The notes: generated by a model from the sequence alone, not told the origin. A DNA stretch of 64,000 nucleotides from an uncultured Gemmatimonadota bacterium (GCA_964576115.1 CAZNUA010000001.1:124001-188000), one strand, 5' to 3'. Counted from the stretch's first letter, positions 6,844-31,272 are shown. Numbers and translations are program-made.

Positions 6844-6868
6844 CTCGTCCTCCCGATGTATCGGGGAG

Positions 6869-7756: not shown

Positions 7757-7904
7757 GGAGCCAAACAACTTCCCCCGGCGACCGCCGTCAGCCTCTTTTT
7801 CGCCCCGCCCGATCCGAATGCACCTGGAGTGCTTCCCGCAGTCGGTATACATTCCCCCTCGACCGCCGCCGCAACCCGTCGCCCGCTGCCGGAAAGGATG
7901 GCAT

Positions 7905-10105: not shown

Positions 10106-10147
10106 ATCCGATCCATCCGGCCGCGGCCGGGTGTGAAGGAGGCTGTT

Positions 10148-11608: not shown

Positions 11609-11638
11609 CGCCGATCCGCCCGGATCCCCCGGATGCGA

Positions 11639-12283
11639 TCAGACGCTCTTTTTCCTCATCAGGATGATTCCGACCGCTGAGCCGAGCAGGGCCACGATGA
11701 GCAGGACGACGAGCAGGGTGATCGTGCCGTTCTTGGACGCGATCGTCTCGTCGAGCTGAGACTGCAAGCCGTTACGCTCGGTCTCGAGAGCGGATATCTG
11801 CGCGCGCAGATCGGTGATGGTGCCGTTCAGAGCGCGGACCTGCTCCTGAAAGGTCTGGGTCCGATCTTCGAGCTCGGTAATGCGGTTTTGCCGGGCTGCA
11901 AGCCGGCGGCGCAGCCCGGCCATCTCGCTCTCGAGTTCGGAAGCCGACTCTTCGGCCGCAGCCGTGGTCTCCTGCTCGGTCGTGAGTTCGGACCGCAAAT
12001 CGTCCCGCTCCGATTCGAGCGTCGCGATGCGATTCCGCAGATCGTTCACGGAGTCCTCGAGATCCCTCTTCTCCGACTGCAGGGTTCCGATCCGGTCACG
12101 GGCTCCTGAGAGCTGCTGCTCGAGATCACCTACCTGTTGCTGCAGGGACACGAGTTCCTGGCTGGCCGCCTCCACCTGCTGCTGTTGCTCCTCGAGCTGC
12201 GCACTGGAGGCACAACCGGCAGCAAGGAATAAAGCTGAGATCGTGGCAATCCACAGCGAGGCCCGGCGTCTGGTCTGGTGCAT
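11639..12283 (-). CDS. Coiled-coil lipoprotein with C-terminal transmembrane helix
   Basis: FLAAGC lipobox, about 160 aa of heptad-rich E/Q/L/R helix, then LLVVLLIVALLGSAVGIILM-RKKSV. Confidence 0.8.
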   Translation of the reverse strand: MHQTRRRASLWIATISALFLAAGCASSAQLEEQQQQVEAASQELVSLQQQVGDLEQQLSGARDRIGTLQSEKRDLEDSVNDLRNRIATLESERDDLRSELTTEQETTAAAEESASELESEMAGLRRRLAARQNRITELEDRTQTFQEQVRALNGTITDLRAQISALETERNGLQSQLDETIASKNGTITLLVVLLIVALLGSAVGIILMRKKSV

Positions 12284-12401
12284 GATTGTCTCCCCCCTGA
12301 AATCGGCGACCGGGTACAGTTCTGACAATGACTGATACAACAACAGCCGACCGGTTCTTCACAAGGCAATACCGTCGCCGATTGTTCTGCCGGTCAGCGT
12401 G

Positions 12402-14165: not shown

Positions 14166-14180
14166 GAATACACAACTCCT

Positions 14181-16310
14181 TCAGGGGCGAGCCCGGGTGC
14201 GGAGAACGGCGTCCACAGCCCGGTGCCGATCGGGTTCAGGTGAACAGAGTACGGGATTGAGCTCGATCTCGACAAGCTCGGGAACCGCCTCAGCCAGGTG
14301 CACCAGACGACCGATCAGGTCGAGCAGGGTTTCCAGGTGCACCCCCGAGCCGCGGGCGGTGCCCGCGAGTACCGGCCAGGCCGCCAGGGAGCGCAGCAGA
14401 CGCCCGGCCTCGCTGCGGCTCAACGGCAGGCGGGCGACAGCCACATCCTGGAGCGCCTCGGTGAAAAAGCCGCCCAGCCCGGCCAGCAGAAGGGGACCGA
14501 AATGCGGATCGCGCCGGGTGGCGAGAATGAGTTCGACGCCTTCTCCGACCATCTCCTGGACAACGAAACCCGTCAGACTCTCACCGGCGGCTGCGATCCC
14601 GTCGGCCATACAGCGGGCGGCGGCGGTGACGTCCCGCGCCCCGGTCAGAGAGAGAGAAACTCCTCCGATATCGGCCTTGTGCAGCAGGCCGGGCACAACC
14701 GCCTTGAGAGCGACAGAGCGGCCGATCCGCTCAGCGGCCTCACCGGCTGCCTCGGGGGTCACAACAACAGCCTGTTCGGGAATCGGAATGCCCGCGGCCC
14801 CGAGCACCACGGCGGTGGCGGCGGGGTCGAGCAGAGAGGGTTCGTCGGCGGCGTCCGCCGGGGGAACCATGGTGGCGAGACCGGCGTCGATACCGGCCCG
14901 ATCCAGTGAAGAGGCAGCGAAAGGAACCTCCTCGCGCCGCTGCCACCCGGCATAGCGGGCCAGAGCCGCCAGGGCCCCGACAGCCGGTTCGGGGTAACGA
15001 TAAATCGGCGGCGCTCCCTCGATACGGGCCGCCACGGGGTAGAAGGCATCGCCTGTCAGAACGGCCGCGACGACCGGTTTGCGCTGCGCGGCCTCCAGGC
15101 CGGAGACGGCCCCGATGACTTCTTCGGGGGTACTCCCCAGCGGCGGGGTGACGTTGACGACGAGCAGGGCGTCGACGTTTTCGTCTTCGGCCACGATCTC
15201 GACGCAGCGCCGGTACTCTTCGGGTCCCGAGGAGGCGATCATGTCGACCGGATTGCCGAGGGCGGCCGCGGGAGGCAGGAAGGCAGCCAGCCGCTGCTGC
15301 ACCTCCGGAGTCAGTTCGGGCAGTTCCAGGCCGTGCCGGCTGCAGGCGTCGGCGGCCATGATGGCCGGTCCGCCGGCGTTGGTGATGATCGCCACCCGGT
15401 TCCCCGCGGGCAGGGGACAGCGTTCGAAAGCGGCCGCCCAGAAGCACATGTCCTGGACGGTCGGCGCCCGCAGCACACCGCACTGGGTCAGCAGGGCATC
15501 GAGGGCCCGCTCGTCGGTCGCCAGAGCCCCGGTGTGCGAGGCCGCGGCGCGGGCGCCCGCCGCTGTGGCCCCTGCCTTGACGGCGATGACCGGACGGCTC
15601 CGGGCCAGAGGCCCGGCCCGTTCAGCGAAGGCGTCGGCGTCGCCGAACGATTCGAGATAGAGGGTAACGACCCGGGTACGCTCATCTTCGAGCCAGAAAT
15701 CGAGGGCGTCTTCGATACCGATGTCGGCCATGTTCCCGACCGAGATGAAGGAAGAGAAACCGAGGTTCAGCCCCTCGGCCAGACTCAGAATGGCCACCCC
15801 GAGAGCACCGCTCTGGCTCACCAGCCCCACCCCGCCGCGGATGACCGGCACCGGGCTGAAGGTCGTGTCGAGACCGACCGCCGGATCGGTGTTGACCGCC
15901 CCCATGCAATTGGGTCCGAGCAGACGCATGTCGTGCCGCCCGGCGATCTCGACCAGTTCCCGCTCCCGTTCGGCCCCCTCTTCGCCGGTCTCCGAGAATC
16001 CGGCCGTGATCACCACCGCCGTACCGATCCCCTTCGCACCGCAGGTTTCGAGCACCTGTCCGACCGCCTCGGGAGGAACGATCACAACCGCCTGATCGAT
16101 CCCCTCGGGCAGATCGTCGGGTGAGGTCAGAGCACGTACACCCTGGACGGTCTCGGCCTTCGGGTTGACGGGGTAGATATCGCCGGTGAATCCGGCTGCA
16201 AGCAGGTTGGCAAAGGTCTTGCCCCCCAGCGATTCGAGCCGGGTGGAAGCGCCGATGACGGCGATCGAGCGGGGTTCGAGAAGCGAAGCGAGGGGGCGGG
16301 ATGCCGACAT
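14181..16310 (-). CDS. ADP-forming acetate/acyl-CoA ligase, alpha-beta fusion (no GNAT domain)
   Basis: PRSIAVIGAS, LLGPNCMG, SQSGALG, ASHTGALA phospho-His, TNAGGP, NPVDM, ATP-grasp HKADIGGV, EIELNP. Confidence 0.92.
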   Translation of the reverse strand: MSASRPLASLLEPRSIAVIGASTRLESLGGKTFANLLAAGFTGDIYPVNPKAETVQGVRALTSPDDLPEGIDQAVVIVPPEAVGQVLETCGAKGIGTAVVITAGFSETGEEGAERERELVEIAGRHDMRLLGPNCMGAVNTDPAVGLDTTFSPVPVIRGGVGLVSQSGALGVAILSLAEGLNLGFSSFISVGNMADIGIEDALDFWLEDERTRVVTLYLESFGDADAFAERAGPLARSRPVIAVKAGATAAGARAAASHTGALATDERALDALLTQCGVLRAPTVQDMCFWAAAFERCPLPAGNRVAIITNAGGPAIMAADACSRHGLELPELTPEVQQRLAAFLPPAAALGNPVDMIASSGPEEYRRCVEIVAEDENVDALLVVNVTPPLGSTPEEVIGAVSGLEAAQRKPVVAAVLTGDAFYPVAARIEGAPPIYRYPEPAVGALAALARYAGWQRREEVPFAASSLDRAGIDAGLATMVPPADAADEPSLLDPAATAVVLGAAGIPIPEQAVVVTPEAAGEAAERIGRSVALKAVVPGLLHKADIGGVSLSLTGARDVTAAARCMADGIAAAGESLTGFVVQEMVGEGVELILATRRDPHFGPLLLAGLGGFFTEALQDVAVARLPLSRSEAGRLLRSLAAWPVLAGTARGSGVHLETLLDLIGRLVHLAEAVPELVEIELNPVLCSPEPDRHRAVDAVLRTRARP

Positions 16311-16531
16311 GCAGGCGGACTCCGGGTCGAAGTGTCGTCGGCCGGCCGGGGACGAGAAGCCGGGTATAGTGTCTTTATAAAGCACATCAGGCCGCCGGGT
16401 GGCCAGTAAAAGGGACACCCCGGTCCGCTTTGCCGTTTGAGCCCCGGGAATCGTGTAGTACTGTACTCACGATCCGTCATCCGGCTTCCACCCGGCCGGG
16501 ACGATTCCGACCCGTACTGGAGAGAAGGCAC

Positions 16532-17371
16532 ATGCGCACCATACCAGCTGAGAAGCTCACCGAGGCGATCAAAGAACTCTCCATGACAGCCAATTACGAC
16601 CTGCCCGAGGATGTCCTTGCGGTCCTCAAAACCGCCCGTGAAGCCGAGGAGTCCCCGGTCGGTCGGGAGATCCTCGATCAGATCATCGAGAACGCCGAGA
16701 TATCCGCCGCCGAGCGGGTGCCGATCTGTCAGGATACCGGCTTCGCCGCCATTTTCCTGGAGATCGGTCACGATGTCTGCATCGAGGGTGACATTCCCGC
16801 GGCCGTTGACGAGGGCGTGCGTCAGGGGTACACCGAGGGCTACCTGCGCAAGTCGATCGTTTCCGATCCCCTGCGCCGGACCAACACCGGCGACAACACC
16901 CCGGCCGCCCTGACGGTCGAATACGTTCCGGGGGATCAGGTCACCGTCACCATCGCCCCGAAGGGAGGCGGGAGCGAGAACATGAGCATGGCCCGTCTCT
17001 TCGCCCCGGCGGCGGGACGTGACGGTCTGGTCGAGTTCGTCGTCAACCGGGTCAGGGAATCGGGCTCGAATCCCTGCCCGCCCGTGGTGGTGGGGGTCGG
17101 GATCGGGGGCACCTTCGATCTCTGCGCCCGCCTGGCCAAGAAGTCATTGATGCGCCGGCTCGGCGAGCGGCATCCCGATCCCTACTATGCCGAGATGGAG
17201 GAGGAGATCTTCGAGAAAGTCAACAACCTCGGGATCGGGCCGATGGGACTGGGAGGACGCACGACGGCCCTGGACGTCCATATCGAAACCTACCCCTGCC
17301 ACATCGCCAGCCTGCCGGTCGCGGTGAACATGCAGTGTCACGCCGCCCGTCACAAAAGCGCGACCATCTAG
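16532..17371 (+). CDS. Fe-S hydro-lyase alpha subunit (fumarate hydratase / tartrate dehydratase type)
   Basis: PICQDTG, NTGDNTPA, PKGGGSEN, NPCPP, GIGPMGLGG, CHIAS..VAVNMQCHAAR. Confidence 0.94.
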   Translation: MRTIPAEKLTEAIKELSMTANYDLPEDVLAVLKTAREAEESPVGREILDQIIENAEISAAERVPICQDTGFAAIFLEIGHDVCIEGDIPAAVDEGVRQGYTEGYLRKSIVSDPLRRTNTGDNTPAALTVEYVPGDQVTVTIAPKGGGSENMSMARLFAPAAGRDGLVEFVVNRVRESGSNPCPPVVVGVGIGGTFDLCARLAKKSLMRRLGERHPDPYYAEMEEEIFEKVNNLGIGPMGLGGRTTALDVHIETYPCHIASLPVAVNMQCHAARHKSATI

Positions 17372-17385
17372 GGAGGAGAGACATC

Positions 17386-17943
17386 ATGGCAGAGAGCAAA
17401 AAGATCCAGCTTCCACTCACTCCCGAGGCCGTGCAGGACCTGCGGGCCGGCGACCGGGTACTGTTGAGCGGTCCCATGTTGACCGGCCGGGACGCGGCCC
17501 ACAAGCGGCTTGTCGACCTGCTCGAGGCCGGCGAGGACCTGCCCGTGGACATCGCCGGCGAGACCATCTACTTCGTGGGTCCCTCCCCCGCCAAGCCCGA
17601 CCAGGTCATCGGTTCGTGCGGTCCGACCACCTCGTACCGCATGGATCCCTACAGCCCGCAGCTGATCGCTCTGGGCCTGCGGGGCATGATCGGCAAGGGC
17701 GCCCGCGGTCCGGCCGTGGTCGAGGCCATGAAAGAACACGGGGCGGTCTACTTTACCGCCGTGGGCGGCGCAGCCGCGCTGATCGCCCGCAGCGTAAAGT
17801 CGATGGAGATCGTGGCCTACGAGGATCTGGGGCCGGAAGCCATCCGGCGCCTGGTGGTCGAGGACTTCCCGGCCATCGTGGCCCAGGACGCCCACGGCGG
17901 CAATCAGTACGAAGCCGGGGTCGAGGAGTACGCCCGCGGTTGA
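17386..17943 (+). CDS. Fe-S hydro-lyase beta subunit (fumarate hydratase C-terminal)
   Basis: TGRDAAHKRL, GPTTSYRMD, MIGKG, EDLGPEA; GGAGG RBS. Confidence 0.94.
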   Translation: MAESKKIQLPLTPEAVQDLRAGDRVLLSGPMLTGRDAAHKRLVDLLEAGEDLPVDIAGETIYFVGPSPAKPDQVIGSCGPTTSYRMDPYSPQLIALGLRGMIGKGARGPAVVEAMKEHGAVYFTAVGGAAALIARSVKSMEIVAYEDLGPEAIRRLVVEDFPAIVAQDAHGGNQYEAGVEEYARG

Positions 17944-18111: not shown

Positions 18112-20277
18112 ATGAGGAGACGATTTCCCCAGTTTGTCATAGCCGCCCTTGTCATCAGCCTGACCGCCGGTCTGGCCCTGACAGACGAGGGGCAGTGGAC
18201 CCCCGATTCACTCGAGAAGCTCAACCTGCGCCGCGCCGGCCTGCGGATCCCGACCGCCCGGGTCTTCAACCCCGGCGGGGAGGGGATCCACGAAGCGGTA
18301 CTCCTGCTCGGCGGGGGCACCGGAGAGTTCGTTTCGGCCGACGGCCTGATCATGACCAACCACCACGTCGCCTTCGGGGCGGTGGCCCGCATCTCCACCG
18401 CCGAACAGGATTACATCACCGACGGCTACTACGCCCGCTCGCCGGCCGAAGAGATCCAGGCCCGCGGCTATACCGCCCGGATGGTCCAGCTTTACGAGGA
18501 CGTGACCGGCCGGGTGCTCGAAGGTGTCGGCGGGACGATGAGCGAGGCGGAACGTCAGGAGACGATCCGTGCCAACGCGCAGGACGTGCTCGCTCAGGCA
18601 CGGGAGGCCCACCCCGACCTGCAGCTCTCGATCTCCGAGTTCTCGTACGGGAACGCCTTCAAGATGGTCGGCTACAGCATCATCCGCGATATCCGGATCG
18701 TCTACGTTCCCCCCTTCGCGGTGGGGAACTACGGTTCGGAAACCGACAACTGGATGTTCCCCCGCCACACCGGAGACTTCAGCTTTCTGCGGGCGTACGT
18801 GGCTCCCGACGGCAGCCCCGCTGCCTATGCGGAAGAGAACGTCCCCTACCACCCCCGCAGCTGGCTCGAGGTGGCCGCCGAGGCGCCGGCCGAGGGCGAT
18901 TTCGCGTTCCTGATGGGTTTTCCGGGCACCACCATGCGCTACCGCAATTCCTACTACGTGGAGTACGAGGCCCGGAGCCGCCTGCCCTATGAGATCACGA
19001 TCCGGGGCGAACGGATCGAAGTCATGGAGCAGGCCGGCGAGGGAGACCGGGCGATCCAGATACGGTACGCCGAGACGATCAAGGGAATCGCCAACGGCTA
19101 CAAGAACTACCAGGGCAAGGTAGTCGGCTTCGCCCGCCAGGATCTGGTCCGGGTCAAGCGTGCCGAGGAGGAGGCCTGGACCGAATGGTACCGTGCCCGC
19201 CCCGAACTGCGAGCCCGCTACGACGGCGTGCTCGACGAACTGGAGGAGATCTACGCCGGCATCGAACGCGACGCGCCCTTCGAGCGGACCGTACGCGAGC
19301 TGATGTATTCCCCCCTGCAGGCCTATGCCGCCGATCTCTACGAGTACTGCGTACAGATGCAGGCGCCCGAGGCCGAGCGGCCGGTAGCCTACCGGGGCGA
19401 GCGCCTCGAACGCGTCCGTTCCGAGCTCCTGGCCGGTCCCCGCTCCTTCTACGCTCCGGTGGACGAGGAACTCTACACCCGGGCGGCGGTCCGGGCCCTG
19501 AATCTGCCGGCCTCCGAACAGATCACCACCTTCGCCGAGATCGTCCGGGGCCAGGAGATCACCGGTTACGGCCCGGCCCTGCAGCGGGTGGTCCGCGACG
19601 CCCACCTCACATCCCCCCTGCTCGACGAACGAAGCCGGACCGAACTGATCGAAGCCGATCCCTCAACGGCGGTCCGGCGGGGCGGTCTCTTCATGGCCGT
19701 GGCGGCCGACGTGCGACCCGCGAGGCTGACGATCGCCGCGCGGCAGAACGAGCGCAACGGGCGGCTGGCCCGGCTGCGCCGGCTCTATGCCGAGGGGATC
19801 CTGGCCTATCGCGAATCCCGGGGCGAGACGCTCTACCCCGATGCCAACCGCTCGCTGCGTTTCTCCTACGGCTACGTGCGCGGGTACGACCCGCGCGACG
19901 CGGTGCGCATCAGACCCTTCACCCACCTCGCCGGAGTCATGGAGAAGGAAACCGGCGAGGGGGAGTTCGTGGTCCCCGACGCTCTGAAACAGGCCTGGCT
20001 CGAGCGTGACTTCGGCCCCTTCGCCGATGACTCGGGGGACGTGCCCGTCTGCCTGCTGACCAACTGCGACACCACCGGCGGCAATTCGGGCAGCCCCCTG
20101 ATGAACGCCCGCGGCGAGCTGATCGGCATCAACTTCGACCGGGTCTGGGAAGCCACCGTCAACGACTACAATTTCGATCCCGAATTCGGACGCAACATCA
20201 GCGTACACATGCACTACATCCTCTTCGTCTGCCGCACCTTCGGCGCTGACCGGGTGCTGGCGGAGCTGGGGTTCTGA
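18112..20277 (+). CDS. S46 family dipeptidyl peptidase (DPP7/DPP11-like)
   Basis: DEGQW, GLIMTNHHV, DNWMFPRHTGDFSFLRAY, YPDAN.SLR, DTTGGNSGSP, GINFD. Confidence 0.95.
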   Translation: MRRRFPQFVIAALVISLTAGLALTDEGQWTPDSLEKLNLRRAGLRIPTARVFNPGGEGIHEAVLLLGGGTGEFVSADGLIMTNHHVAFGAVARISTAEQDYITDGYYARSPAEEIQARGYTARMVQLYEDVTGRVLEGVGGTMSEAERQETIRANAQDVLAQAREAHPDLQLSISEFSYGNAFKMVGYSIIRDIRIVYVPPFAVGNYGSETDNWMFPRHTGDFSFLRAYVAPDGSPAAYAEENVPYHPRSWLEVAAEAPAEGDFAFLMGFPGTTMRYRNSYYVEYEARSRLPYEITIRGERIEVMEQAGEGDRAIQIRYAETIKGIANGYKNYQGKVVGFARQDLVRVKRAEEEAWTEWYRARPELRARYDGVLDELEEIYAGIERDAPFERTVRELMYSPLQAYAADLYEYCVQMQAPEAERPVAYRGERLERVRSELLAGPRSFYAPVDEELYTRAAVRALNLPASEQITTFAEIVRGQEITGYGPALQRVVRDAHLTSPLLDERSRTELIEADPSTAVRRGGLFMAVAADVRPARLTIAARQNERNGRLARLRRLYAEGILAYRESRGETLYPDANRSLRFSYGYVRGYDPRDAVRIRPFTHLAGVMEKETGEGEFVVPDALKQAWLERDFGPFADDSGDVPVCLLTNCDTTGGNSGSPLMNARGELIGINFDRVWEATVNDYNFDPEFGRNISVHMHYILFVCRTFGADRVLAELGF

Positions 20278-20309: not shown

Positions 20310-21494
20310 ATGGCGCAGCATACCATCGTCGCGATGCCCGGGGACGGTATCGGTGCGATCGTCCTCCCCGAGGCGATCCGGGTTCTGGAAGCGGCCGGTT
20401 TCGCGGCCGGATACGTCCATGGGGACATCGGCTGGGAGTTCTGGCGCACCGAGGGTAATGCCCTGCCCGAGCGTACCGTCGACCTGCTGGCCGAGCACAA
20501 GGTCGGGCTCTTCGGGGCCATCACCAGTAAGCCGAAGAACGAGGCGGCGGCAGAACTCGACCCCGCCCTGCACGATCAGGGGTACGTGTACTACTCCCCG
20601 ATCGTAGGGCTGCGGCAGCGCTTCGACCTGGACATCTCGATCCGCCCCTGCCGTTCCTTCGCGGGCAACCTGCTCAACTTCGTCCGGCGTTCGGCGGGGG
20701 GCGCGTGCGAGGAGCCCGAGGTGGACGTGGTCGTCTTCCGGCAGAACACCGAAGGGCTTTACTGCGGGGTGGAATGGACCGATCCGCCGGCTGCGGTGCG
20801 GGCCGCCTTCGAATCGCACCCCAAATTCGCTCCCTTCGCCACCGCCCCGGGAGCCGACCTGGCCATCTCGAGCCGCATCTTCACCCGCGGGGCCTGCCGC
20901 CGGATCATGGAGGAAGCTTTCTCCTACGCCCGGACTCACGGTTATCGCTCGGTGACGGTGTGCGAGAAACCGAACGTCATCCGGGAGACCTCGGGGATGC
21001 TCGAGCACGAGGCCCGCGAGGTGGCCGCCGAGTACGCCGATATCGCGCTGTGGTCGACCAACATCGACGCCCAGACAATGTGGCTGACCAAGAATCCCGA
21101 GGATTACGGCGTCATCGTGTCGGGGAACATGTTCGGCGATATCATTTCAGACGCTTTCGCCGGTCTGGTCGGGGGCCTGGGATTTGCCGCCTCGTCCAAC
21201 GTGGGACGGGAAGTGGCGGTCTTCGAACCCACCCACGGCTCGGCCCCCAAGTACGCCGAGCTCGAGCCGAGTATCGTCAACCCGATCGCCATGATCCTGG
21301 CCGCCGCCATGATGCTCGACCATCTCGGCGAAACCGGAACGGCCGACGCGGTGCGGGCGGCGGTCGGCCGGGTTGTTTCCGAAGGCAGAATCAGAACCTA
21401 CGACATGTGCAAGATCCCCGGCGGAGCCGGGGTGATCGAACAGGGTGCGGCGACAACGAAGCAGATGACCGACGCCGTCATCGACGCCCTCTGA
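20310..21494 (+). CDS. Beta-decarboxylating dehydrogenase (isocitrate/isopropylmalate family), homoisocitrate-dehydrogenase-like
   Basis: PGDGIG, YYSPIVGLR, RQNTEGLY, NMFGDIISD, FEPTHGSAPKY, NPIAMIL. Confidence 0.92.
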   Translation: MAQHTIVAMPGDGIGAIVLPEAIRVLEAAGFAAGYVHGDIGWEFWRTEGNALPERTVDLLAEHKVGLFGAITSKPKNEAAAELDPALHDQGYVYYSPIVGLRQRFDLDISIRPCRSFAGNLLNFVRRSAGGACEEPEVDVVVFRQNTEGLYCGVEWTDPPAAVRAAFESHPKFAPFATAPGADLAISSRIFTRGACRRIMEEAFSYARTHGYRSVTVCEKPNVIRETSGMLEHEAREVAAEYADIALWSTNIDAQTMWLTKNPEDYGVIVSGNMFGDIISDAFAGLVGGLGFAASSNVGREVAVFEPTHGSAPKYAELEPSIVNPIAMILAAAMMLDHLGETGTADAVRAAVGRVVSEGRIRTYDMCKIPGGAGVIEQGAATTKQMTDAVIDAL

Positions 21495-21520
21495 GGGAAC
21501 CAGCATCCGGGAGGTCCGTC

Positions 21521-22105
21521 ATGATCGAAGCCGAAGATATCAGGGAACTGTTCGCCGATCTGCTCACGGAAATCACCGCCGAGGACCTGCGCGAGAAGGT
21601 CATCGCGGCCTGGGTTCTGGCCTGTGCCGAGGGGGGGTGGGAGGATCTCGAACAGGTACGCACGATGCCCTTCACCCTGCTGACCGACTGCGGCGGGATC
21701 GGTTTCGTGGAGCACACCGTGGCCGTGACCCGGGGGGCGCTTGGTCTGGCCGAGGCCCAGCAGGCGGCTTACGACCGTCTGCCCTATGCGATCGATCGCG
21801 ACCGGTTGATCGCCGGCGGGCTGCTGCACGATGTGGGCAAGCTGCTCGAGATCGAACCCGACTCATCGGGGGGCTACCGCAAGAGTCATAAGGGGCGCTG
21901 CACCCGCCACCCGATCAGCGGTACCGTCGTCGCCGCCCGGGTCGGACTGGGACCGGAGGTGCAGAACAGCATTGCCTGTCATTCGAAAGAAGGTGACGGC
22001 CGGCCGAAAACGGTCGAGACGATCTTCATCCACCAGGCCGACTTCGCCACCTTCGATCCCCTCACCGCCCGGGCCGCCGGCACGCTGATCGAGGGTAAAG
22101 ACTGA
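21521..22105 (+). CDS. HD-domain metal-dependent phosphohydrolase
   Basis: VEHT...LLHDVGK...RHPISG...ACH...HQAD; GGAGG before ATG 21521. Confidence 0.88.
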   Translation: MIEAEDIRELFADLLTEITAEDLREKVIAAWVLACAEGGWEDLEQVRTMPFTLLTDCGGIGFVEHTVAVTRGALGLAEAQQAAYDRLPYAIDRDRLIAGGLLHDVGKLLEIEPDSSGGYRKSHKGRCTRHPISGTVVAARVGLGPEVQNSIACHSKEGDGRPKTVETIFIHQADFATFDPLTARAAGTLIEGKD

Positions 22106-23971
22106 TGGGCAGGACCGTCATCGAGCAGATCATCGCCGCACATACCGGCGACGCGGTCACCCCCGGCGCCGTGGTGGAACTGGCGATCGATCTGCGGGTG
22201 GCGCGCGACTTCGGCGGTGCCAACGTGGTGGCCAATCTCGAGGAACACGACCTGCGGCTGGCCGATCCGGAGCGCACCGCTTTCACCTTCGACTGCAATC
22301 CGACCGGCTCGGACCAGGGGTATGCCGCCAACCAGCAGCGCTGCCGCGACTTCGCCCGCCGGAACGGGGTCAGGATCTTCGACATCAACCGGGGAATCGG
22401 CACCCACCTGGTGATCGAAGAGGGGCTCGTCGCTCCCGGCTCGACCTTCGTCTCGACCGATTCGCACGCCAATATCATGGGAGCAGTAGGCGCCTTCGGC
22501 CAGGGCATGGGCGACCTGGACATCGCTCACGCTTTTGCCCGCGGTTCGGTCTGGTTCCGGGTGCCGCCGACAGTACGGGTGCACCTGACGGGCGAACCCT
22601 CGCCGGTGGCCGCGGCCAAAGACCTGACCCTGGCCCTGGTGCGTCATTTCGGTTCGAAGGGTCTGCTCGGCCGGGCGGCCGAGGTCTCGGGTCCGGCGAT
22701 CGAGGCTCTCGACCTGGCCGGACGCATCACCCTGGCCTCGATGGCCACCGAGATGGGCGCCATCATCCTCTTTCCCCTCCCTTCTGCCGCGGCCGAGGCC
22801 GAACTGGCCGCCTGGACGGATCAGGAACGCACCTGGCCCCGGCCCGAGGCGGGAGCGGCCTACGAAACCGAAGTCGAGATCGACGTCGAGGGGCTCGAAC
22901 CGCTCGTGAGCCGGCCGGGCCATCCCGATGACGTCGTGCCGGTCAGCGAGGTCGAAGGCGAACCAATCGGCTCGGTCTTCATCGGCTCGTGCACCAACGG
23001 CCGGCTGGCCGATCTGGCTGCGGCGGCCCGGATCGTGAGCGATCATCCCCCGGCCGACGGGGTGATCGTCAAGGTGGTGCCCGCCACCGACCGGGTCTGG
23101 CGCGAAGCGCTGGCCGGCGGCCTCGTCGAAACGTTCAAGCAGGTCGGCGCCCTGTTGAGCAATGCCGGCTGCGCCGGCTGCGCCGCCGGTCAGGTGGGAC
23201 AGACCGGACCGGGGGAGGTCACCCTATCGACCGGCAACCGGAATTTTCCCGGCAAGCAGGGGCTGGGTTCGGTCTGGCTGGCCTCGCCGGCCACCGCGGC
23301 CGCCTCGGCCGCGGCCGGTTTCATTACCGGAGTCGACCGGCTGGCCGCGGCCCTCGAACGGCCGGCCGTGCAGAGAGCCGCCGAGCCTGTGGCCCCGATC
23401 ATCGCCGAGCCGGCCGCCCGGCGTCCTGTCTCCTCCGCTCAGGCGGCGCAGGCTCCGGCCGCCGACAGAGCCCTGGTCGTCGAGGGGCGCGTCTGGATCC
23501 TGGAGACCGATTCGGTGGATACCGACATGATCTACCACAACCGTCACCTGGCCGTGGTGGATATGCAGGAAATGGGACGATACGCCCTGGGGAACGTCCC
23601 GGGCTGGGAGGAGTTTCCTGAACGGGTTCGGCCCGGCGACATCCTGGTGACCGGAGCCAATTTCGGCGCCGGGAGCAGCCGGCAGCAGGCGGTGGATTGT
23701 TTCCGGGCGCTCGGAGTGGGAGCGATCATCGGCGCCAGTTTCGGAGCCATCTACGAACGCAACGCCGTCAACAGCGGTCTGGCCCTGCTGCAGGGCGATC
23801 TTCGCTCCGCGCTCACGGACGGAGACCGGGTGCAGGTCGATCTCAAAGAAGGTATCGTGGAGCGTATGAGCGACGGAGAACGATTCGCGGTCACCCCGAT
23901 GTCGGAGGTCCAGCTCCGCATCTACCGCCGGGGCGGCCTGCTGGCCGGTCCCGGAGCAGAACCGGACGAGC

Positions 23972-23979
<8 letters not shown>
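22105..23979 (+). CDS. Aconitase-family hydro-lyase, LeuC/HacA large plus LeuD/HacB small subunit fusion, atypical active site
   Basis: TDSHAN, FIGSCTNGR, GCAGC, STGNRNFPG, Ala/Pro linker, then DTDMIY and NFGAGSSRQQA swivel domain. Confidence 0.9.
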
Positions 23980-25233
<1,254 letters not shown>

Positions 25234-25237
<4 letters not shown>

Positions 25238-25731
25238 AGGTCTGGCGCTATGGCGACGACGTGAACACCGACCAGCTCTTTCCCGGCAAGTACACCTACA
25301 GCTGCTCCACCGCCGAAGACATCCTCCCCCACCTGCTCGAGGACCTCGACCCCGCTTTCGCCGCTGGCGTGCAGGCGGGTGACGTCATCGTGGCGGGGCG
25401 CAATTTCGGCTGCGGTTCGAGCCGCGAGCAGCCCGTCCTGGGACTCCGGGCCGCCGGCATCGCGGGCATCGTCGCCGAATCGTTCGCCCGGATCTTCTTT
25501 CGGGCGGCCGTCAACCAGGGCCTGGTCCTGATCGAATCCCCCGCAGCCGTCGGGGCCTGGGCAGAGGGGGACGAGATCATCCTCGATCCCGCCGGCGGCA
25601 TGGTGCGGGTGGGGACCGAAACCTTCCGGGTACCCCCCCTTCCCCCCCTGCTGCTCGAGATCAGGGAGGCGGGGGGACTCCTGCCGGCGGTCCGAGCCCG
25701 CCTGGCTGCAGAGAGGGACAGTGAATCATGA
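25234..25731 (+). CDS. 3-isopropylmalate dehydratase / homoaconitase-type small subunit
   Basis: VWRYGDDVNTDQLFPGKY, NFGCGSSREQP, SFARIFFR; ATGA overlap with upstream gene. Confidence 0.92.
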
Positions 25732-26993
25732 GCCGCACGACACAGGATATCGGCGAGGCCGGTCACCGGGGATCAGAGGTCCGCTCCGACTGCTGGATCA
25801 GGGTCGAACCGGGAGCCGGTCCCGGCGTGAAACTCACCAGCCGGGTCGAGGCCTTTTACGGAGAGAGTATCCGTGCCCTGATCGAAGCGGGGCTCACCGC
25901 GCTCGAGGTCCCCGACGCGGCGGTCACAATCGAGGACGGCGGAGCCCTGCCCTGGGTCATCGCCGCCCGTCTCGAGGCGGCGGTGCGGGCCGCCGGCGCC
26001 GGCGGTCCCGAGCCCTTTCTGCCCGAACGCACGGTCGAGCCGCGCCGCCCCGAACGGGATCGCTTCCGGCGATCCCGCCTCTACCTGCCGGGAAACACCC
26101 CGAAGTTCATGCTCAATGCCGCCCTGCACGCCCCCGACGGTATCATCCTCGACCTGGAAGATTCGGTTGCACCCGAGCGCAAGGCCGAGGCCCGCTACCT
26201 GGTCCGTAACGCTTTGCGGGCCCACGACTTCGGCGCCTGCGAGGTCATGGTCCGGATCAACCAGTCTCCCCTCGGACTGACCGATCTCGACATGATCGTT
26301 CCCGAAGGCCCCGAGCTGATCCTCATCCCCAAAGCCGAAGACGCCGCAGGAGTCCGTGAGGTCGCCGAAACCGCCGGCATCCTGGCCGTCAACGCGAACC
26401 AGCCCGCGCCTCTTCTGATGCCGATCATCGAAAGTGCCCGGGGAGCGTGGTTCGTCTACGAGATCGCCACCGCCCACGAACAGGTGGCGGCCCTCACCAT
26501 CGGTCTGGAGGATTACACCGCCGATCTGGGGGTCGAGCGCACCGCCGGGGGACGGGAATCGTTCTGGGCCCGCGCGCGGCTCGTCAACGCCGCCCGCGCG
26601 GCCGCAGTACAGGCCATCGACACCGTCTTCAGCGACGTGGACGACGCCGAGGGACTGCAGGCCAGTGTGGCCGAAGCCCGCGCTCTCGGTTTCGAGGGCA
26701 AGGGCTGTATCCATCCCCGCCAGATCGGAATCGTCCACCAGACCTTCGCCCCGGGACCGGAGGAGATCGACAAAGCGGTGGCGATCGTCCAGGCCTGGGA
26801 CGTGGCCCGGGAACGGGGCGAGGGAGTCGTAGCCCTGGGCAGCAAGATGATCGATCCCCCGGTGGTGGCACGGGCAGAGCGGATCGTGAAGCTGGCCCGG
26901 GCCCTCGACCTGATCGCAGACGCCCCCAGGGACGGTGGGCTCACCGCCGACGACGGCCGGGAGAGCGACACTGCTCACAGCAGGGAGGTCTGA
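25728..26993 (+). CDS. citE: Citrate-lyase ACP (CitD)-like domain fused to citryl-CoA lyase (CitE)-like domain
   Basis: N-terminal AG..RSDCWIRVEP, S.VEAFYGESI, IEDGGAL.WVIAARLE (CitD-like); then RRSRLYLPGN, ILDLEDSV, VMVRIN, PKAE, IES, GLEDY, AIDTV, GFEGKGCIHPRQ. Confidence 0.88.
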   Translation: MSRTTQDIGEAGHRGSEVRSDCWIRVEPGAGPGVKLTSRVEAFYGESIRALIEAGLTALEVPDAAVTIEDGGALPWVIAARLEAAVRAAGAGGPEPFLPERTVEPRRPERDRFRRSRLYLPGNTPKFMLNAALHAPDGIILDLEDSVAPERKAEARYLVRNALRAHDFGACEVMVRINQSPLGLTDLDMIVPEGPELILIPKAEDAAGVREVAETAGILAVNANQPAPLLMPIIESARGAWFVYEIATAHEQVAALTIGLEDYTADLGVERTAGGRESFWARARLVNAARAAAVQAIDTVFSDVDDAEGLQASVAEARALGFEGKGCIHPRQIGIVHQTFAPGPEEIDKAVAIVQAWDVARERGEGVVALGSKMIDPPVVARAERIVKLARALDLIADAPRDGGLTADDGRESDTAHSREV

Positions 26994-26995
26994 GG

Positions 26996-28558
26996 ATGCC
27001 GGAGACAGGAATTGCTCGCGTCGAGAACGTCCTCGGGCGAAGCGTACCCGAGAGCGTCAACGGTCGCGCCCGGGTTCCCTTTCAGGGGGTGGGGATTCAC
27101 CGCCCCGGGGGATACCGGACCGGACCGCCGATCCGCTCGTGTGCCGATTACCCCGTCGACGGCGACAAACGCGTACCCGATCTCGAGGCTGCACTCGAAG
27201 CCTGCGGTCTGGCCGACGGGATGACGATCAGCACCCACCACCATCTGCGCAACGGCGATACGATCGCCAACGCCCTCTTCGATACCGCCGCCCGTCTGGG
27301 GGTCAGGGATCTGATGTGGTTCCCCTCAGCATCCTTCCCCTGCCACGAACCGCTCATCGAGCATCTCGATTCGGGCGTCATCCATCACATCGAGGGGAGC
27401 ATGAACGGTCCTCTCGGGGATTACTGCTCGCAGGGACGGATGCGGGGCACGCATGTGCTGCGCTCTCACGGCGGCCGCTGGCAGGCAATCCAGGACGGCG
27501 AGGTGCATATCGATCTCGCCGTCATCGCCGCGCCGACCGCCGATCCCTTCGGTAACGCCCACGGGCTCACAGGACCGTCGGCGACCGGGGGGCTGGGTTT
27601 CGCCCTGGCCGACAGCCGCTATGCCGACCGGGTCGTCGTCGTAACCGACAATCCGGTCCCCTTCCCCGCCGTGCCGTGGCAGATCCAGGGGAACGACGTG
27701 GACTGCGTGGTCGAAGTCGAGAGTCTGGGGGATGCGTCTCAGATCATCTCGGGTACGACCCGGATCACCCGCAGTCCCGACCGCCTGCTGATCGCCGAGC
27801 AGGTGGCCCGCTTCGTGGCCGAAACGGGCATCATGCGCGAAGGCTTCAGTTTCCAGGCCGGTGCCGGCGGCACCGCTCTGGCCTTCACCATCTATCTGAA
27901 GGAGCTGATGCGCGAAGCCGGAGTGAAAGCCCGCTTCATACGCGGCGGCACGACCCGCTACCTGGTCGAGATGCTCGAGGAGGGCCTGACCGATTACCTG
28001 CTCGACGGTCAGACCTTCGATCTGGAAGCGGTGACGAGCATGGGCCGCAATCCCGGCCACGTCATGACCAGCCCCTTCACCTCCTATAACTACCACGGCA
28101 AGGGCAATTTCGCACCGCTGGTGGACGTGGTCGTGCTGGGTGCCACCGAAGTCGACACCGCTTTCAACGCCAACGTGGTCACCCACAGTGACGGTCGCCT
28201 CCTGCATGGCATCGGCGGCTGGCAGAACTGCCTGTTCGCCGGCTGTACCATTCTGGCCGTACCCACCATGCGCGACCGCATTCCGGTTATCGTGGACGAG
28301 GTCACGACCCTCTGCGCTCCCGGCGAACTCATCGATGTAGTGGCAACCGAACGGGGTATCGCCATCAATCCCCGCCGCCGTGACCTGCGCGAGGCCCTGG
28401 CCGGCTCATCGCTGCCGATCCGCGAGATCGAGGATATCCGCACCGAACTGGTGCAGATGTGCGGGGCGCCGCAAAAGCCCCGGCCGGAGGAGGAGATCGT
28501 TTCGGTGGTCACCTGGGTGGACGGCACCTTGCTCGACAGTATCCGCCGGGTGGAATGA
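26996..28558 (+). CDS. citF: Citrate lyase alpha subunit (citrate CoA-transferase)-like
   Basis: GLADGMTISTHHHLRNGD, LRSHGGR, FSFQAGAGG, LDGQTFD, LGATEVD..FNANV, PGELIDVVATERGIAINPRR, DGTLLD. Confidence 0.92.
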   Translation: MPETGIARVENVLGRSVPESVNGRARVPFQGVGIHRPGGYRTGPPIRSCADYPVDGDKRVPDLEAALEACGLADGMTISTHHHLRNGDTIANALFDTAARLGVRDLMWFPSASFPCHEPLIEHLDSGVIHHIEGSMNGPLGDYCSQGRMRGTHVLRSHGGRWQAIQDGEVHIDLAVIAAPTADPFGNAHGLTGPSATGGLGFALADSRYADRVVVVTDNPVPFPAVPWQIQGNDVDCVVEVESLGDASQIISGTTRITRSPDRLLIAEQVARFVAETGIMREGFSFQAGAGGTALAFTIYLKELMREAGVKARFIRGGTTRYLVEMLEEGLTDYLLDGQTFDLEAVTSMGRNPGHVMTSPFTSYNYHGKGNFAPLVDVVVLGATEVDTAFNANVVTHSDGRLLHGIGGWQNCLFAGCTILAVPTMRDRIPVIVDEVTTLCAPGELIDVVATERGIAINPRRRDLREALAGSSLPIREIEDIRTELVQMCGAPQKPRPEEEIVSVVTWVDGTLLDSIRRVE

Positions 28559-28569
28559 GGAGGTGACAC

Positions 28570-31272
28570 GTGAGCGCTGAGAACAGGTCCGATCCTTTCG
28601 CGGGGCCCGATGCGCCCCTCAAGCTCGACCGCGAGGACGCACCCGAGATTCTGCAGCTCATTCTCGAGCAGAGCCGGGCCGCGATCTACCTGCTGGTCGG
28701 CAAGCAGTTCCCGATCATCAACCAGCGTTTTGAGGAACTCTTCGGGGTATCCCGCCGGGAGGCCAACTCACCCGAGTTCGATTTCATGGACCTGGTGGCC
28801 CCCGAGAGCCGACCCCTGATCGTCGAGCGGGCCGAAGCCTACGGCCGGGGCGAAGCGATCCCGAACGACTACGAGTTCACCGCCCTGACCGCCGAGGGCC
28901 GGCGGCTCGAAGTCTTCGCCAGTACCGTACGGGTGAGTTTTCGCGGTCAGGAAGGTACCCTGGGCATTCTACGCGACATCACCGCCCAGAAAGAGGCGGC
29001 CGAAGCCCTGCGTGCCAGCGAAGAAAAATACCGCACCCTGGTGGAAAGGGCCAACGACGGGATCGTCATTCTGCAGGGGGATACGATCGCCTTCGCCAAC
29101 AGCCAGGCCGCCGCCCTGACCGGTTTCGACGTCGAAGAACTGCCCGGCCGATCGTTCGTCGAAGCCATCCCGCCCGAGTATCGTGACACCCTCATCGGCC
29201 GGTACACCGAGCGGCTCGACGGTGAAAGAGTCCCAGCCCTGTACGAGACCGAAATCCTGCACCGCGATGGCACCCGCATCCCGGTCGAGGTCAACGCCGG
29301 TCGCATATCCTACGGTAGCCAGCCCGCCGATATGATCATCCTGCGCGACCTGACATCCCGCCGCGAGGCCGAGGCCCGGCTGCGGGAATCGGAAGCGGAG
29401 CGGGCCATGATCCTCGATTCCGTGAACGAGTTGATCGCCTTCCAGGACACCGAGCTACGGATCGTCTGGGCCAACCGGACGGCTATCGAATCAGCTGGCT
29501 TGACAGCCGAGGAAATCATCGGCCGGCACTGCTACGAGATCTGGCCCGGCAGCTCGGAGCCATGCGAAAACTGTCCGGTCGAGAGAGCGATGGCCACGGG
29601 CCGGTCCGAGAAGCAGGAGATCACGACCCCCGACGGCCGGGTGTGGTTCATCCAGGGAGCGCCGGTCATCGACGAAGACGGGACCGTCACCGGGGCGGTC
29701 GAGACCACGCTGGAGATCACCGACCTGCGGCGGGCCGAGGAAGCCCTGCGGGAGAGCGAGACCAGTCTGCGCACCCTTTTCGAGACGATGGTCGAGGGAG
29801 TGGCCTGGGTTACCCCCGACGGTGGTTTTGTGCGGGCCAATCAGGCCGCCGAGGAAATTCTTCGTCTAGAAAAATTGCCTGACGGCAACGTGTATGACAC
29901 CCCCCGCTGGGAGCTGATCGGCGAGGATGAACTCCCGCTCGAGGAGAACCAGAACCCCTGCCTTCTCGCCTGCTCCGGCACCGAACCGATCAAGAACATG
30001 CTCGTCGGCGTCCGGCATCCGGAAGGGGACCTGACCTGGATCAACCTGAGCATCACCCCGGTCAGCGACGGCGCGGGTGCCATCCAGGCCAGCGTTTGGA
30101 CTTTCTTCGATGTAACCGAGCGCAAACTGCTCGAACGCCAGCTCTTTCAGTCGCAGAAGATGGAGGCGGTCGGTCGCCTGGCCGGCGGAATCGCCCACGA
30201 TTTCAACAACATCCTGACCGTCATCTCGGGCAACGCCCAGCTCGGGATCATGCGCCTGAAAGAAGCCGATCCCCTGGGCGAACGCCTGCAGACCATCCTG
30301 CAGGCGGCCGGTCATGCCGAAGATCTGACCCGCCGGTTACTGGCCTTCAGCCGCCGGCAGATCACCTCGCCCCGCACTCTCGATCTGAACGAGATCCTCG
30401 AAGGCCTGCAACCGATGCTCGAACGCCTGCTGGGCGAGGACGTCAAAGCGATCTTCGATCTGACCGAGGAGCGGGGAGCGGTCACCTTCGACCCCACCCA
30501 GCTGGAGCAGATGCTGGTCAACCTGGTCGTCAACGCCCGCGATGCAATGCCGGAAGGGGGCACTCTCACGATCGGCACCGGGATCACCACCCTGGACGCC
30601 GCCTATGCCCGGATCCACCCGTACGTCGAGCCGGGGCAATATGTCTTTGTGGCGGTCAGCGATACCGGAACCGGTATGACCGAGGATATCAAAGACCACA
30701 TCTTCGAACCCTTTTTCACTACCAAGGAAGACGGCACCGGTCTCGGGCTGGCCACGGTCTACGGCATCGTGAAGCAGAGCGGCGGTTCGATCGAACTGGA
30801 GAGCACCACCGGCGAGGGCACTACCTTCACCATCTTTCTGCCCCTGGCCGACGAGACCCCGGAGAGTTACCGCCAGGAAGAGTTCCGGGCCGAGCTGCCC
30901 TGGGGATCGGAGACCATCCTGCTGGTCGAAGATGAAGAAGGAGTGCGCACCTTCGCCGCCGAGACGCTGGGGGAACTCGGGTACATCGTGCACGACTTCG
31001 CCGCCCCGGAGGACGCTCTCGCCTTCTGCCGAACGGGTGAGATACCCCTCGATCTCATCCTCTCCGACGTGGTCATGCCCGGTTCGAGCGGCAGCGAACT
31101 GGTTCAGGATATCCAGCAGTACCACCCCGACACACCCGTGCTGTACATGAGCGGCTACACAGACGACCACATCGTGCGCCAGGGCATCCTCGACGACGAT
31201 GTCGAGTTCATTCCCAAGCCCTTCACGCCCTACGATCTGGCGCGGCGGGTGCGGGATATCCTGGACGATTGA
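28570..31272 (+). CDS. Hybrid sensor histidine kinase (four PAS domains, HisKA, HATPase, receiver)
   Basis: Repeated PAS ends (RDITAQK, RDLTSRR, EITDLRR, DVTERK), QSQKMEAVGRLAGGIAHDFNNIL, NARDAM, GTGLGL, receiver LVEDE/SDVVMPG/KPF. Confidence 0.95.
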   Translation: MSAENRSDPFAGPDAPLKLDREDAPEILQLILEQSRAAIYLLVGKQFPIINQRFEELFGVSRREANSPEFDFMDLVAPESRPLIVERAEAYGRGEAIPNDYEFTALTAEGRRLEVFASTVRVSFRGQEGTLGILRDITAQKEAAEALRASEEKYRTLVERANDGIVILQGDTIAFANSQAAALTGFDVEELPGRSFVEAIPPEYRDTLIGRYTERLDGERVPALYETEILHRDGTRIPVEVNAGRISYGSQPADMIILRDLTSRREAEARLRESEAERAMILDSVNELIAFQDTELRIVWANRTAIESAGLTAEEIIGRHCYEIWPGSSEPCENCPVERAMATGRSEKQEITTPDGRVWFIQGAPVIDEDGTVTGAVETTLEITDLRRAEEALRESETSLRTLFETMVEGVAWVTPDGGFVRANQAAEEILRLEKLPDGNVYDTPRWELIGEDELPLEENQNPCLLACSGTEPIKNMLVGVRHPEGDLTWINLSITPVSDGAGAIQASVWTFFDVTERKLLERQLFQSQKMEAVGRLAGGIAHDFNNILTVISGNAQLGIMRLKEADPLGERLQTILQAAGHAEDLTRRLLAFSRRQITSPRTLDLNEILEGLQPMLERLLGEDVKAIFDLTEERGAVTFDPTQLEQMLVNLVVNARDAMPEGGTLTIGTGITTLDAAYARIHPYVEPGQYVFVAVSDTGTGMTEDIKDHIFEPFFTTKEDGTGLGLATVYGIVKQSGGSIELESTTGEGTTFTIFLPLADETPESYRQEEFRAELPWGSETILLVEDEEGVRTFAAETLGELGYIVHDFAAPEDALAFCRTGEIPLDLILSDVVMPGSSGSELVQDIQQYHPDTPVLYMSGYTDDHIVRQGILDDDVEFIPKPFTPYDLARRVRDILDD

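Follow-up and report, generated by a model that had tools for sequence, protein, structure and literature searches.

Introduction

Citrate (pro-3S)-lyase (CitDEF; EC 4.1.3.6), known from Escherichia coli, Klebsiella and lactic acid bacteria, works by acyl exchange followed by an aldol-type cleavage that releases acetate. Citramalate lyase of Clostridium tetanomorphum is a homolog of the same acyl carrier protein (ACP) type and cleaves the C5 acid citramalate in glutamate fermentation. The upper alpha-aminoadipate pathway links homocitrate, cis-homoaconitate, homoisocitrate and 2-oxoadipate, using aconitase and Lys4 in fungi and LysT/U in Thermus; as outlined in PMC3556520, the fungal conversion of homocitrate to homoisocitrate takes two enzymes. 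For 2-oxoadipate, the described fates include glutaryl-CoA, through the 2-oxoadipate dehydrogenase complex, and D-2-hydroxyglutarate, through HglS (PMC9367764, PMC7286885). Here we analyze a seven-gene operon in which citrate-lyase-like genes stand beside a dehydrogenase and two aconitase-family hydro-lyases. It occupies positions 20310..28558 of a 64,000-nucleotide (nt) stretch of DNA, called the window below, from an uncultured Gemmatimonadota bacterium (GCA_964576115.1, CAZNUA010000001.1:124001-188000). A preliminary description of the window had proposed a (homo)citrate pathway for it, with a CitEF-like pair at the synthase step.

Compared with citrate lyase, the CitF and CitE parts encoded by the operon are homologous (40% identity to E. 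coli CitF across 465 residues and 38% to E. coli CitE) and the carrier has a conserved serine, and the same chemistry would be expected of them. The differences are that carrier and beta subunit form a single protein, that CitC, CitX and CitG were not found, and that the partner genes, taken across lineages, are not those for a citrate carrier or oxaloacetate decarboxylase but those for homoaconitase-, PrpD- and homoisocitrate dehydrogenase (HICDH)-type enzymes and an HD protein. The substrate would likely be homocitrate instead of citrate. With the upper alpha-aminoadipate pathway the operon shares its predicted intermediates, a predicted two-enzyme isomerization like that of fungi and, in a second form of the module, a LYS4-type homoaconitase at the equivalog level. 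Unlike that pathway, the module has, in this genome, a lyase complex where homocitrate synthase would be expected, shows no LysX-type continuation to lysine in most of its carriers, would use a fused LeuCD-like or PrpD-family protein for the first dehydration, and probably runs in reverse. The proposed route would start from the same substrate as the dehydrogenase-complex and HglS routes, but it would carboxylate 2-oxoadipate reductively and split off acetate, consuming reductant and without need for oxygen.

Organization and predicted reactions of the operon

All seven genes proposed earlier were recovered on the plus strand at their reported positions, and Pfam and NCBIfam agreed with every family assignment. 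The operon begins with a beta-decarboxylating dehydrogenase (DH; 20310-21494, 394 residues, Pfam Iso_dh), a predicted HICDH, followed by a conserved accessory gene for an HD-domain protein (21521-22105, 194 residues, Pfam HD and TIGR00277 HDIG). Next come a fused LeuC-LeuD-like [4Fe-4S] hydro-lyase of a divergent subfamily (22105-23979, 624 residues, Aconitase and Aconitase_C), predicted to dehydrate homocitrate to cis-homoaconitate, and a separate LeuC (23972-25237, 421 residues, NF001614 and TIGR01343) and LeuD (25234-25731, 165 residues, TIGR02087), putatively the large and small subunits of a homoaconitase-type enzyme. The last two genes encode a fusion of CitD (acyl carrier) and CitE (acyl-lyase) (25728-26993, 421 residues, Pfam ACP and HpcH_HpaI), the predicted beta/gamma part of a homocitrate lyase, and a CitF-type acyl-transferase subunit (26996-28558, 520 residues, Pfam CitF), its predicted alpha part. 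The tight junctions described before are real: genes overlap by 1 nt at 22105, 8 nt at 23972 and 4 nt at both 25234 and 25728, and a gap of 2 nt precedes CitF at 26996. Thus five of the six junctions overlap or almost abut, the other being the 26-nt spacing between DH and HD.

The gene content, its conservation and co-occurrence and the shared motifs are observations, whereas the substrates, the direction and the charging of the carrier are inferred. The DH would interconvert 2-oxoadipate plus CO2 and NAD(P)H with homoisocitrate, LeuC/LeuD would act as a homoaconitase between homoisocitrate and cis-homoaconitate, and the divergent fused hydro-lyase, or a PrpD-family enzyme in other lineages, would interconvert cis-homoaconitate and homocitrate. 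In place of homocitrate synthase, the complex of CitD-CitE and CitF would then interconvert homocitrate with 2-oxoglutarate and acetate. In this organism the predicted run is catabolic: lysine or aminoadipate would give rise to 2-oxoadipate, which would end up as 2-oxoglutarate and acetate. We regard a homocitrate-type substrate series as slightly favored and, given such a series, the catabolic direction as fairly probable here; for the module explanation as a whole the chances seem to us about even.

The module is conserved in two forms

A survey of the gene neighborhoods of the CitD-CitE fusion in species-representative genomes gave 588 candidate stretches, 514 of which encoded relatives of the fusion, and the best 80 loci were kept. 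Genes of the module co-occur in these loci across many phyla, and at least one DH, HD, aconitase-family or PrpD gene lies beside CitD-CitE in 51 of the best 80 of the 514 loci. CitF is next to the fusion in 58 loci, a LeuD-like gene in 45, a LeuC-like gene in 41, the HD gene in 35, the DH in 32, a PrpD-family gene in 23 and the fused hydro-lyase in 20. The full seven-gene order was found in eight loci from Gemmatimonadota, Acidobacteriota, Bradymonadales, Myxococcales, an Ignavibacteriae metagenome-assembled genome (MAG) and MAGs of unclassified bacteria. Within Gemmatimonadota themselves, seven of nine usable genomes carried CitF, which is too few for a test.

A second form, present in 17 of the 80 loci, has a fungal-type homoaconitase and a PrpD-family protein in place of the two aconitase-family enzymes. 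In Rosettibacter primus its order is DH, CstA, HD-like, a 657-residue fused aconitase-family protein, a PrpD/MmgE-family protein, CitD-CitE and CitF. The 657-residue protein scores 892.6 bits on the TIGR00139 homoaconitase model (equivalog cut-off 529.9), while the PrpD-family protein is far under the prpD cut-offs (91 versus 575). The CstA-family transporter gene between DH and HD (L028:3881-5515) was also seen inside the module in four other loci.

Rosettibacter further carries a Thermus-type lysine cluster (L101, approximately 6683-12694) with LysW, a homocitrate-synthase-like protein, LysX, LysY, an amidotransferase-like protein, LysZ and LysJ. This cluster includes neither a homoaconitase nor an HICDH, and LysA was not found in the genome. 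Because of the Thermus-type cluster and the missing LysA, Melioribacteraceae probably make lysine by the aminoadipate route, for which the Rosettibacter genome needs an HICDH. Apart from LeuB and isocitrate dehydrogenase (ICDH), that genome encodes no Iso_dh protein other than the DH orthologue, which is 66% identical to the window DH. More generally, once the leu and tricarboxylic acid (TCA) cycle genes are set aside, Iso_dh and aconitase-family genes occur there in the module alone, so its DH and hydro-lyase are the only candidates for HICDH and homoaconitase. In Melioribacteraceae the module enzymes thus probably serve the aminoadipate pathway.

CitF co-occurs with LYS4-type homoaconitase

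We determined how CitF and LYS4-type homoaconitase are distributed in 251 genomes of the class of Rosettibacter that were at least 85% complete; these genomes are related and hence not independent. CitF is present in 52 of them, LYS4-type homoaconitase in 53 (52 over the cut-off) and LysX in 17. Both CitF and homoaconitase were found in 47 genomes, CitF only in five, homoaconitase only in six and neither in 193, an odds ratio of about 300 for this set of relatives. The two genes are separated in several genomes, by 400 kb or by their location on different contigs. LYS4-type homoaconitase is present in 16 of the 17 LysX carriers. LysX is absent from 34 of the 47 genomes with both CitF and homoaconitase, and therefore the homoaconitase in these is not explained by LysW-type lysine synthesis. 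Only three genomes have homoaconitase but neither LysX nor CitF, and two of these three homoaconitase genes are truncated by the end of a contig. LYS4-type homoaconitase thus occurs in two settings, with LysW-type lysine synthesis or with the CitF lyase, and the latter would be difficult to account for if the lyase did not act on the homo series.

A smaller set of 21 module-bearing genomes, including this one, was compared for lysine and synthase genes. No HMGL-family synthase was found in nine of the 21. LysX over the cut-off is absent from 18, and the three carriers (G005, G008 and G010) have an HMGL-family gene beside LysX, which in Rosettibacter is homocitrate-synthase-like.

The two aconitase-family hydro-lyases differ

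The window LeuC exceeds the cut-offs of two subfamily models (501.4 versus 385 bits on NF001614; 486.8 versus 385.7 on TIGR01343 hacA_fam), and LeuD that of TIGR02087 LeuD/DmdB (158.9 versus 108.95); TIGR01343 and TIGR02087 include archaeal isopropylmalate isomerases. Neither subunit reaches the homoaconitase equivalog level, with LeuC at 281.8 versus 529.9 on TIGR00139 and 388.8 versus 550 on HacA_Meth, and LeuD at 138.1 versus 229 on PRK14023. The leuB, leuC and leuD equivalog scores of the window proteins are all far under their cut-offs. The LYS4-type homoaconitase of Rosettibacter shares 37% identity with the window LeuC and 28% with its fused paralogue. At the small-domain loop the window LeuD reads FPGKYTYSCS and LYS4-type enzymes YPGKYTYNDD. 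The core PG[KR]YTY is common to all 43 LeuD or LYS4-type small subunits or domains that the search pattern caught in related loci; the true LeuD of the Rosettibacter leu operon has IPAEHLVYS there. Work on methanogen enzymes points to this loop as the determinant of specificity. Because of the identity to LYS4-type enzymes and the common loop, LeuC/LeuD are predicted to act on cis-homoaconitate and homoisocitrate.

The fused hydro-lyase is more divergent. It falls under every large-subunit, aconitase and equivalog cut-off in NCBIfam (best NF001614, 376.9 versus 385) and passes only the small-subunit subfamily model TIGR02087 (129 versus 108.95), through its C-terminal domain. The large domains of both aconitase-family enzymes retain three cluster cysteines (GSCTNG and GCAGC in the fused protein) and the DSH motif. 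The fused protein has ARDFGG in place of the THDNT of LeuC and the LYS4-type enzyme, and its small-domain loop is MI[FY]HN[RK][HY]L, not PGKYTY. Its gene is absent from the second module form, where the PrpD/MmgE-family gene is present. We assign it by exclusion to the predicted step between homocitrate and cis-homoaconitate.

The dehydrogenase

The DH matches Pfam Iso_dh with 249.9 bits. Its top NCBIfam matches are the methanogen homoisocitrate dehydrogenases AksF2 (253 bits, cut-off 540) and AksF (245 bits, cut-off 500), followed by ICDH at 218 and isopropylmalate dehydrogenase at 209 bits, all under their cut-offs. Database names of its homologs are generic. The loop that had been likened to that of fungal HICDHs, with the motif YYSPIVGLRQRF, is present in the DH. 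In an alignment with Protein Data Bank (PDB) sequences, the S-x-N motif of ICDHs is S-P-I in the window DH, and Thermus HICDH also has Ile at the Asn position. The position of Arg85 in Thermus HICDH is Val in the window DH. A PDB search matched the DH to the Schizosaccharomyces pombe enzyme 3ty3 at 1.2e-39; the 29-residue DH loop used as PDB query gave no match.

The predicted lyase subunits and their missing helpers

The CitD-CitE fusion matches Pfam ACP with 64 bits and HpcH_HpaI with 167.5 bits. On TIGR01588 citE its CitE part scores 254.5, well under the equivalog cut-off of 443.4, and retains the DLEDS and EDY motifs. The serine of the carrier VRSDC motif is present in 66 of 67 sequences and lies one column off Ser14 of E. 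coli CitD in a MAFFT alignment. CitF is closer to its family, with 440 bits on Pfam CitF and 484.4 on TIGR01584 citF (equivalog cut-off 501.45), and the Rosettibacter orthologue passes that cut-off with 522.5 bits.

Canonical citrate lyases depend on CitC (ligase), CitX (transferase) and CitG (prosthetic-group synthase), whose genes accompany those of the subunits in the citCDEFXG cluster described for Geobacter bemidjiensis. None of the three was found in this genome, which is estimated to be 93.7% complete. CitX and CitG were likewise not found in any of the 20 other module-bearing genomes, which are also incomplete. Five of these were searched for CitC and gave no full-length match, only two partial matches of 24 bits. 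In the Ignavibacterium album genome paper, CitF and a CitE-CitD fusion were read as an ATP-independent citrate lyase that perhaps completes a reverse TCA cycle (PMC3362086); the available portion of that account does not mention the module neighbors of these genes.

The HD protein

The HD protein was found in 35 of the 80 related loci, in every case within the module. H65, D104, H130, H154, E157, H171 and D174 are invariant. The His of the 'HD' pair (residue 103 of the window HD protein) is replaced by Ile in each of the 15 Ignavibacteria-type HD-like proteins, while the Asp of the pair and four other His/Asp/Glu positions are still invariant. The metal binding or function of the protein may differ between the two module forms. 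Its structural model is of high confidence (predicted local distance difference test score 92.4), and the nearest solved fold found by Foldseek was only the HD domain of YhaM (template modeling score 0.66, 19% identity). For its function, Atlas, a PDB profile search and Foldseek yielded nothing beyond the generic HD fold. We speculate that it helps to charge the carrier domain of CitD-CitE.

Separate central pathway genes in this genome

The genome around the window comprises 3.96 Mb in 144 contigs, and the absences reported for it are subject to the roughly 6% that is unassembled. The preliminary description had raised the question of separate icd, acn, leu and lysine genes. An AcnA-type aconitase (AcnA-sized, encoded just upstream of the window), an ICDH-type dehydrogenase and one citrate synthase are indeed present; LeuA, LysA and LysX were not found, the best LysX match reaching 55 bits and no cut-off. 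The ICDH-type protein, which has the S-x-N motif, also belongs to the Iso_dh family and is encoded on a different contig. Its 476-residue open reading frame (L002:1486-2916, minus strand, contig C18) includes an inserted stretch of small zinc-ribbon-like appearance, in which there are four cysteines (CLYC ... CDKC).

The absence of a synthase from the window, reported before, extends to the genome: no HMGL-family gene, whether LeuA, homocitrate synthase or citramalate synthase, was found in the 93.7% covered. Because AcnA, an ICDH-type dehydrogenase and citrate synthase are encoded separately and no HMGL-family synthase was found, the operon cannot, by these assignments, be counted as the TCA set or as a leucine operon. 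In gene content the organism resembles a peptide degrader that lacks leucine and lysine biosynthesis; it might be auxotrophic for both amino acids and grow on peptides.

Possible link to lysine and direction of the proposed pathway

This genome encodes a lysine 6-transaminase (LAT) at the equivalog level (626 bits). LAT over the cut-off was present in ten of the 21 module-bearing genomes and in none of 14 controls. In one Myxococcales locus, a LAT orthologue with 53% identity divergently adjoins the module (L081:2893-4204, minus strand). There the transaminase consists of two overlapping pieces in different frames, and the DH and LeuC of the locus are split likewise, which suggests a frameshift or assembly error. 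In Rosettibacter, LAT adjoins an equivalog-level piperideine-6-carboxylate dehydrogenase (P6CDH). Lysine-catabolic neighbors at the orthologue level were found only at L144, with a saccharopine dehydrogenase (SDH, 54% identity), and at L081. A search with the divergent DH subtype of L022 retrieved mostly a different module, and its LAT, SDH and P6CDH matches, at 24-28% identity, were discounted as paralogues.

With no LysA, no LysX over the cut-off and no homocitrate synthase found, a lysine-building role has no visible continuation in this genome. Its many peptidase genes, a nicotinamide adenine dinucleotide-dependent glutamate dehydrogenase (NAD-GDH) and an ADP-forming acyl-CoA synthetase are points for catabolism. 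The one-to-two cleavage catalyzed by citrate lyase is thermodynamically favored at millimolar concentrations, and isocitrate-type dehydrogenases are reversible. The net reaction from 2-oxoadipate to 2-oxoglutarate and acetate would consume NAD(P)H and CO2.

Flanking genes and variants of the module

Class I fumarase alpha (16430-17371) and beta (17335-17943) genes lie upstream of the DH on the same strand, as does an S46 dipeptidyl-peptidase gene (18112-20277) that ends 33 nt before it. These genes might be co-transcribed with the operon; their arrangement does not recur among the gene families common to related loci. Downstream, a PAS-rich hybrid sensor histidine kinase (28570-31272; HisKA, HATPase and receiver domains) begins on the same strand 11 nt past CitF and is a possible regulator of the operon. 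A simple scan for an operon promoter or terminator gave nothing above shuffled sequences. Peptidase genes of the window include members of families M28, M3, S46 and M48.

The module is interrupted in other genomes (L072:4627-7657 and 11352-14910, L033:1067-1516, L049:6775-7531), with the order of the metabolic genes unchanged. The inserted genes encode nucleotidyltransferase/HEPN pairs, PD-(D/E)XK proteins, the 23S rRNA intervening-sequence protein family, and AAA_21 with DUF4276. We rejected them as pathway members, since they are toxin-antitoxin-like or other selfish or defense-type genes.

A sister module, in which LeuC and LeuD come after a related DH, was seen in at least 34 loci of a separate set of 80 (L116-L195), obtained in the search with the L022 DH subtype. 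At L136:10001-15159, a 309-residue HMGL-like protein of the 3-hydroxy-3-methylglutaryl-CoA lyase type and a family III CoA-transferase stand between DH and LeuC/LeuD. This CoA-ester lyase and transferase occupy the place of CitD-CitE and CitF in the window. The LeuD loop of the sister module is PGRYMAT, not PGKYTY. The sister module is spread over many phyla and also occurs in Methanomassiliicoccales archaea.

Discussion

The comparative results favor the pathway proposed in the preliminary description, with a CitEF-like pair at the synthase step: the genes co-occur across phyla, TCA genes are encoded separately, no HMGL-family synthase was found, and CitF co-occurs with homoaconitase. Cleavage of homocitrate is also favored, although an ACP-type lyase would release acetate rather than the acetyl-CoA named there.

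Several results weigh against the homocitrate series or the link to lysine. The DH is under every NCBIfam cut-off, PDB ICDHs and Thermus HICDH score it alike (184 and 173 bits), and isocitrate is also a substrate of Thermus-type HICDH. CitF closely resembles genuine citrate-lyase alpha subunits, both here (484 versus 501) and in Rosettibacter (522.5). CitD-CitE stands alone in 18 of the 80 loci and only with CitF in 11, many of these reduced loci being from Phycisphaerae or on short contigs. The co-occurrence counts come from related genomes that are not independent. A homocitrate synthase coexists with the lyase in Melioribacteraceae, which would be futile unless regulated. Regarding lysine, LAT was found in 25 of the 52 CitF-positive and 189 of the 199 CitF-negative genomes of the class, a negative association for which we rejected it as a co-occurrence marker. 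Neither P6CDH nor 2-aminoadipate transaminase was found over the cut-off in this genome. Proteins of the SDH family occur in 15 of the 21 module-bearing genomes and are ambiguous with polyamine enzymes, because the copy in this genome is near an arginase-family gene and another is beside a LysA-like decarboxylase.

The preliminary description had offered citrate itself as an alternative substrate. The lyase would then be an ordinary citrate lyase, and the DH and hydro-lyases would act on isocitrate and citrate in a reductive route from 2-oxoglutarate through citrate to acetate and oxaloacetate, for glutamate fermentation or as an ATP-independent reverse TCA step. CitF at or near the citF equivalog cut-off, its identity to the E. 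coli protein and the published reading of the I. album genes are consistent with this, as are an AMP-forming acetyl-CoA synthetase within 10 kb of the module in eight of the 80 loci and the neighbors of the operon in the window. These neighbors, the ADP-forming acyl-CoA synthetase, class I fumarase and large NAD-GDH, had suggested a fermentative role; they are all present near the operon, but they do not recur among the gene families of the 80 loci. One aconitase would be enough for citrate, yet both module forms retain two dehydratase types, and the genome already holds AcnA and an ICDH-type gene. The co-occurrence of CitF with equivalog-level homoaconitase in 47 of the 52 CitF genomes, the homoaconitase-type loop of LeuD, and the missing CitX and CitG (21 of 21 genomes) and CitC (six of six tested) further weaken the citrate alternative, which we consider unlikely. 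A series based on other hydroxy acids is less probable still: citramalate/methylmalate, with conversion of 2-oxobutyrate to pyruvate and acetate, methylcitrate, or longer 2-oxodicarboxylates shortened by a reversed methanogen Aks pathway. AksF enzymes, the best family matches of the DH, handle several chain lengths, and an ACP-type lyase acting on citramalate is known. The CstA gene inside the Rosettibacter form and the action of PrpD relatives on methylcitrate, judged by family names, also fit such a series. However, equivalog-level homoaconitase and the common loop indicate the C7 homo series, the PrpD-family protein is far under the prpD cut-offs, and no recurrent methylisocitrate lyase or propionate genes were seen among the loci.

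Within the homo series, the module could also run in the opposite direction. The lyase would join acetate to 2-oxoglutarate, forming homocitrate with no input of ATP or CoA, and the decarboxylating DH would pull the reaction, giving a synthase-free upper aminoadipate pathway to 2-oxoadipate or 2-aminoadipate for lysine or another product. The HMGL-family synthase not seen here nor in nine of the 21 module-bearing genomes would suit this, as would the missing LysA, the presence of homoaconitase in 16 of the 17 LysX-positive class genomes and the module enzymes as only candidates for the Melioribacteraceae aminoadipate route. Yet this genome has no LysX over the cut-off and no visible continuation from aminoadipate to lysine, 34 class genomes have CitF and homoaconitase without LysX, and in all three LysX carriers of the 21 an HMGL-family gene adjoins LysX. 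Cleavage would moreover be favored at millimolar concentrations. We therefore rate the biosynthetic direction as improbable, though not quite as much so as a different acid series, and retain cleavage of homocitrate as the preferred reading.

In its fullest form, the preferred reading would add an oxygen-independent third fate of 2-oxoadipate. Derived from lysine, 2-oxoadipate would be reductively carboxylated, carried backwards through the upper aminoadipate pathway and split by a homocitrate lyase whose carrier is charged without CitC, CitX and CitG, perhaps with the help of the HD protein; the fused hydro-lyase, or the PrpD-family protein, would be a bacterial homocitrate dehydratase. We put this full version forward tentatively, as a possibility clearly less probable than the homocitrate series itself. 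We found no description of the module or of a homocitrate-lyase route in a search of the openly accessible literature, judged largely by listings and abstracts.

If the reading holds, an unrecognized pathway would join lysine and 2-oxoadipate to 2-oxoglutarate and acetate in many uncultured sediment and soil lineages, among them Ignavibacteria, Acidobacteriota, Gemmatimonadota-like groups, Phycisphaerae, WOR-3, Eisenbacteria and Myxococcota. It could be tested directly in carriers that are already in culture, namely Rosettibacter primus, Melioribacter roseus and Ignavibacterium album. The current labels 'citrate lyase', 'isopropylmalate isomerase' and 'isocitrate dehydrogenase' would then feed wrong claims of a reverse TCA cycle. 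Candidates would be named for the homocitrate-dehydrating step, to which no enzyme is assigned in bacterial aminoadipate pathways, and the citrate-lyase family would gain a new substrate and a new mode of maturation.

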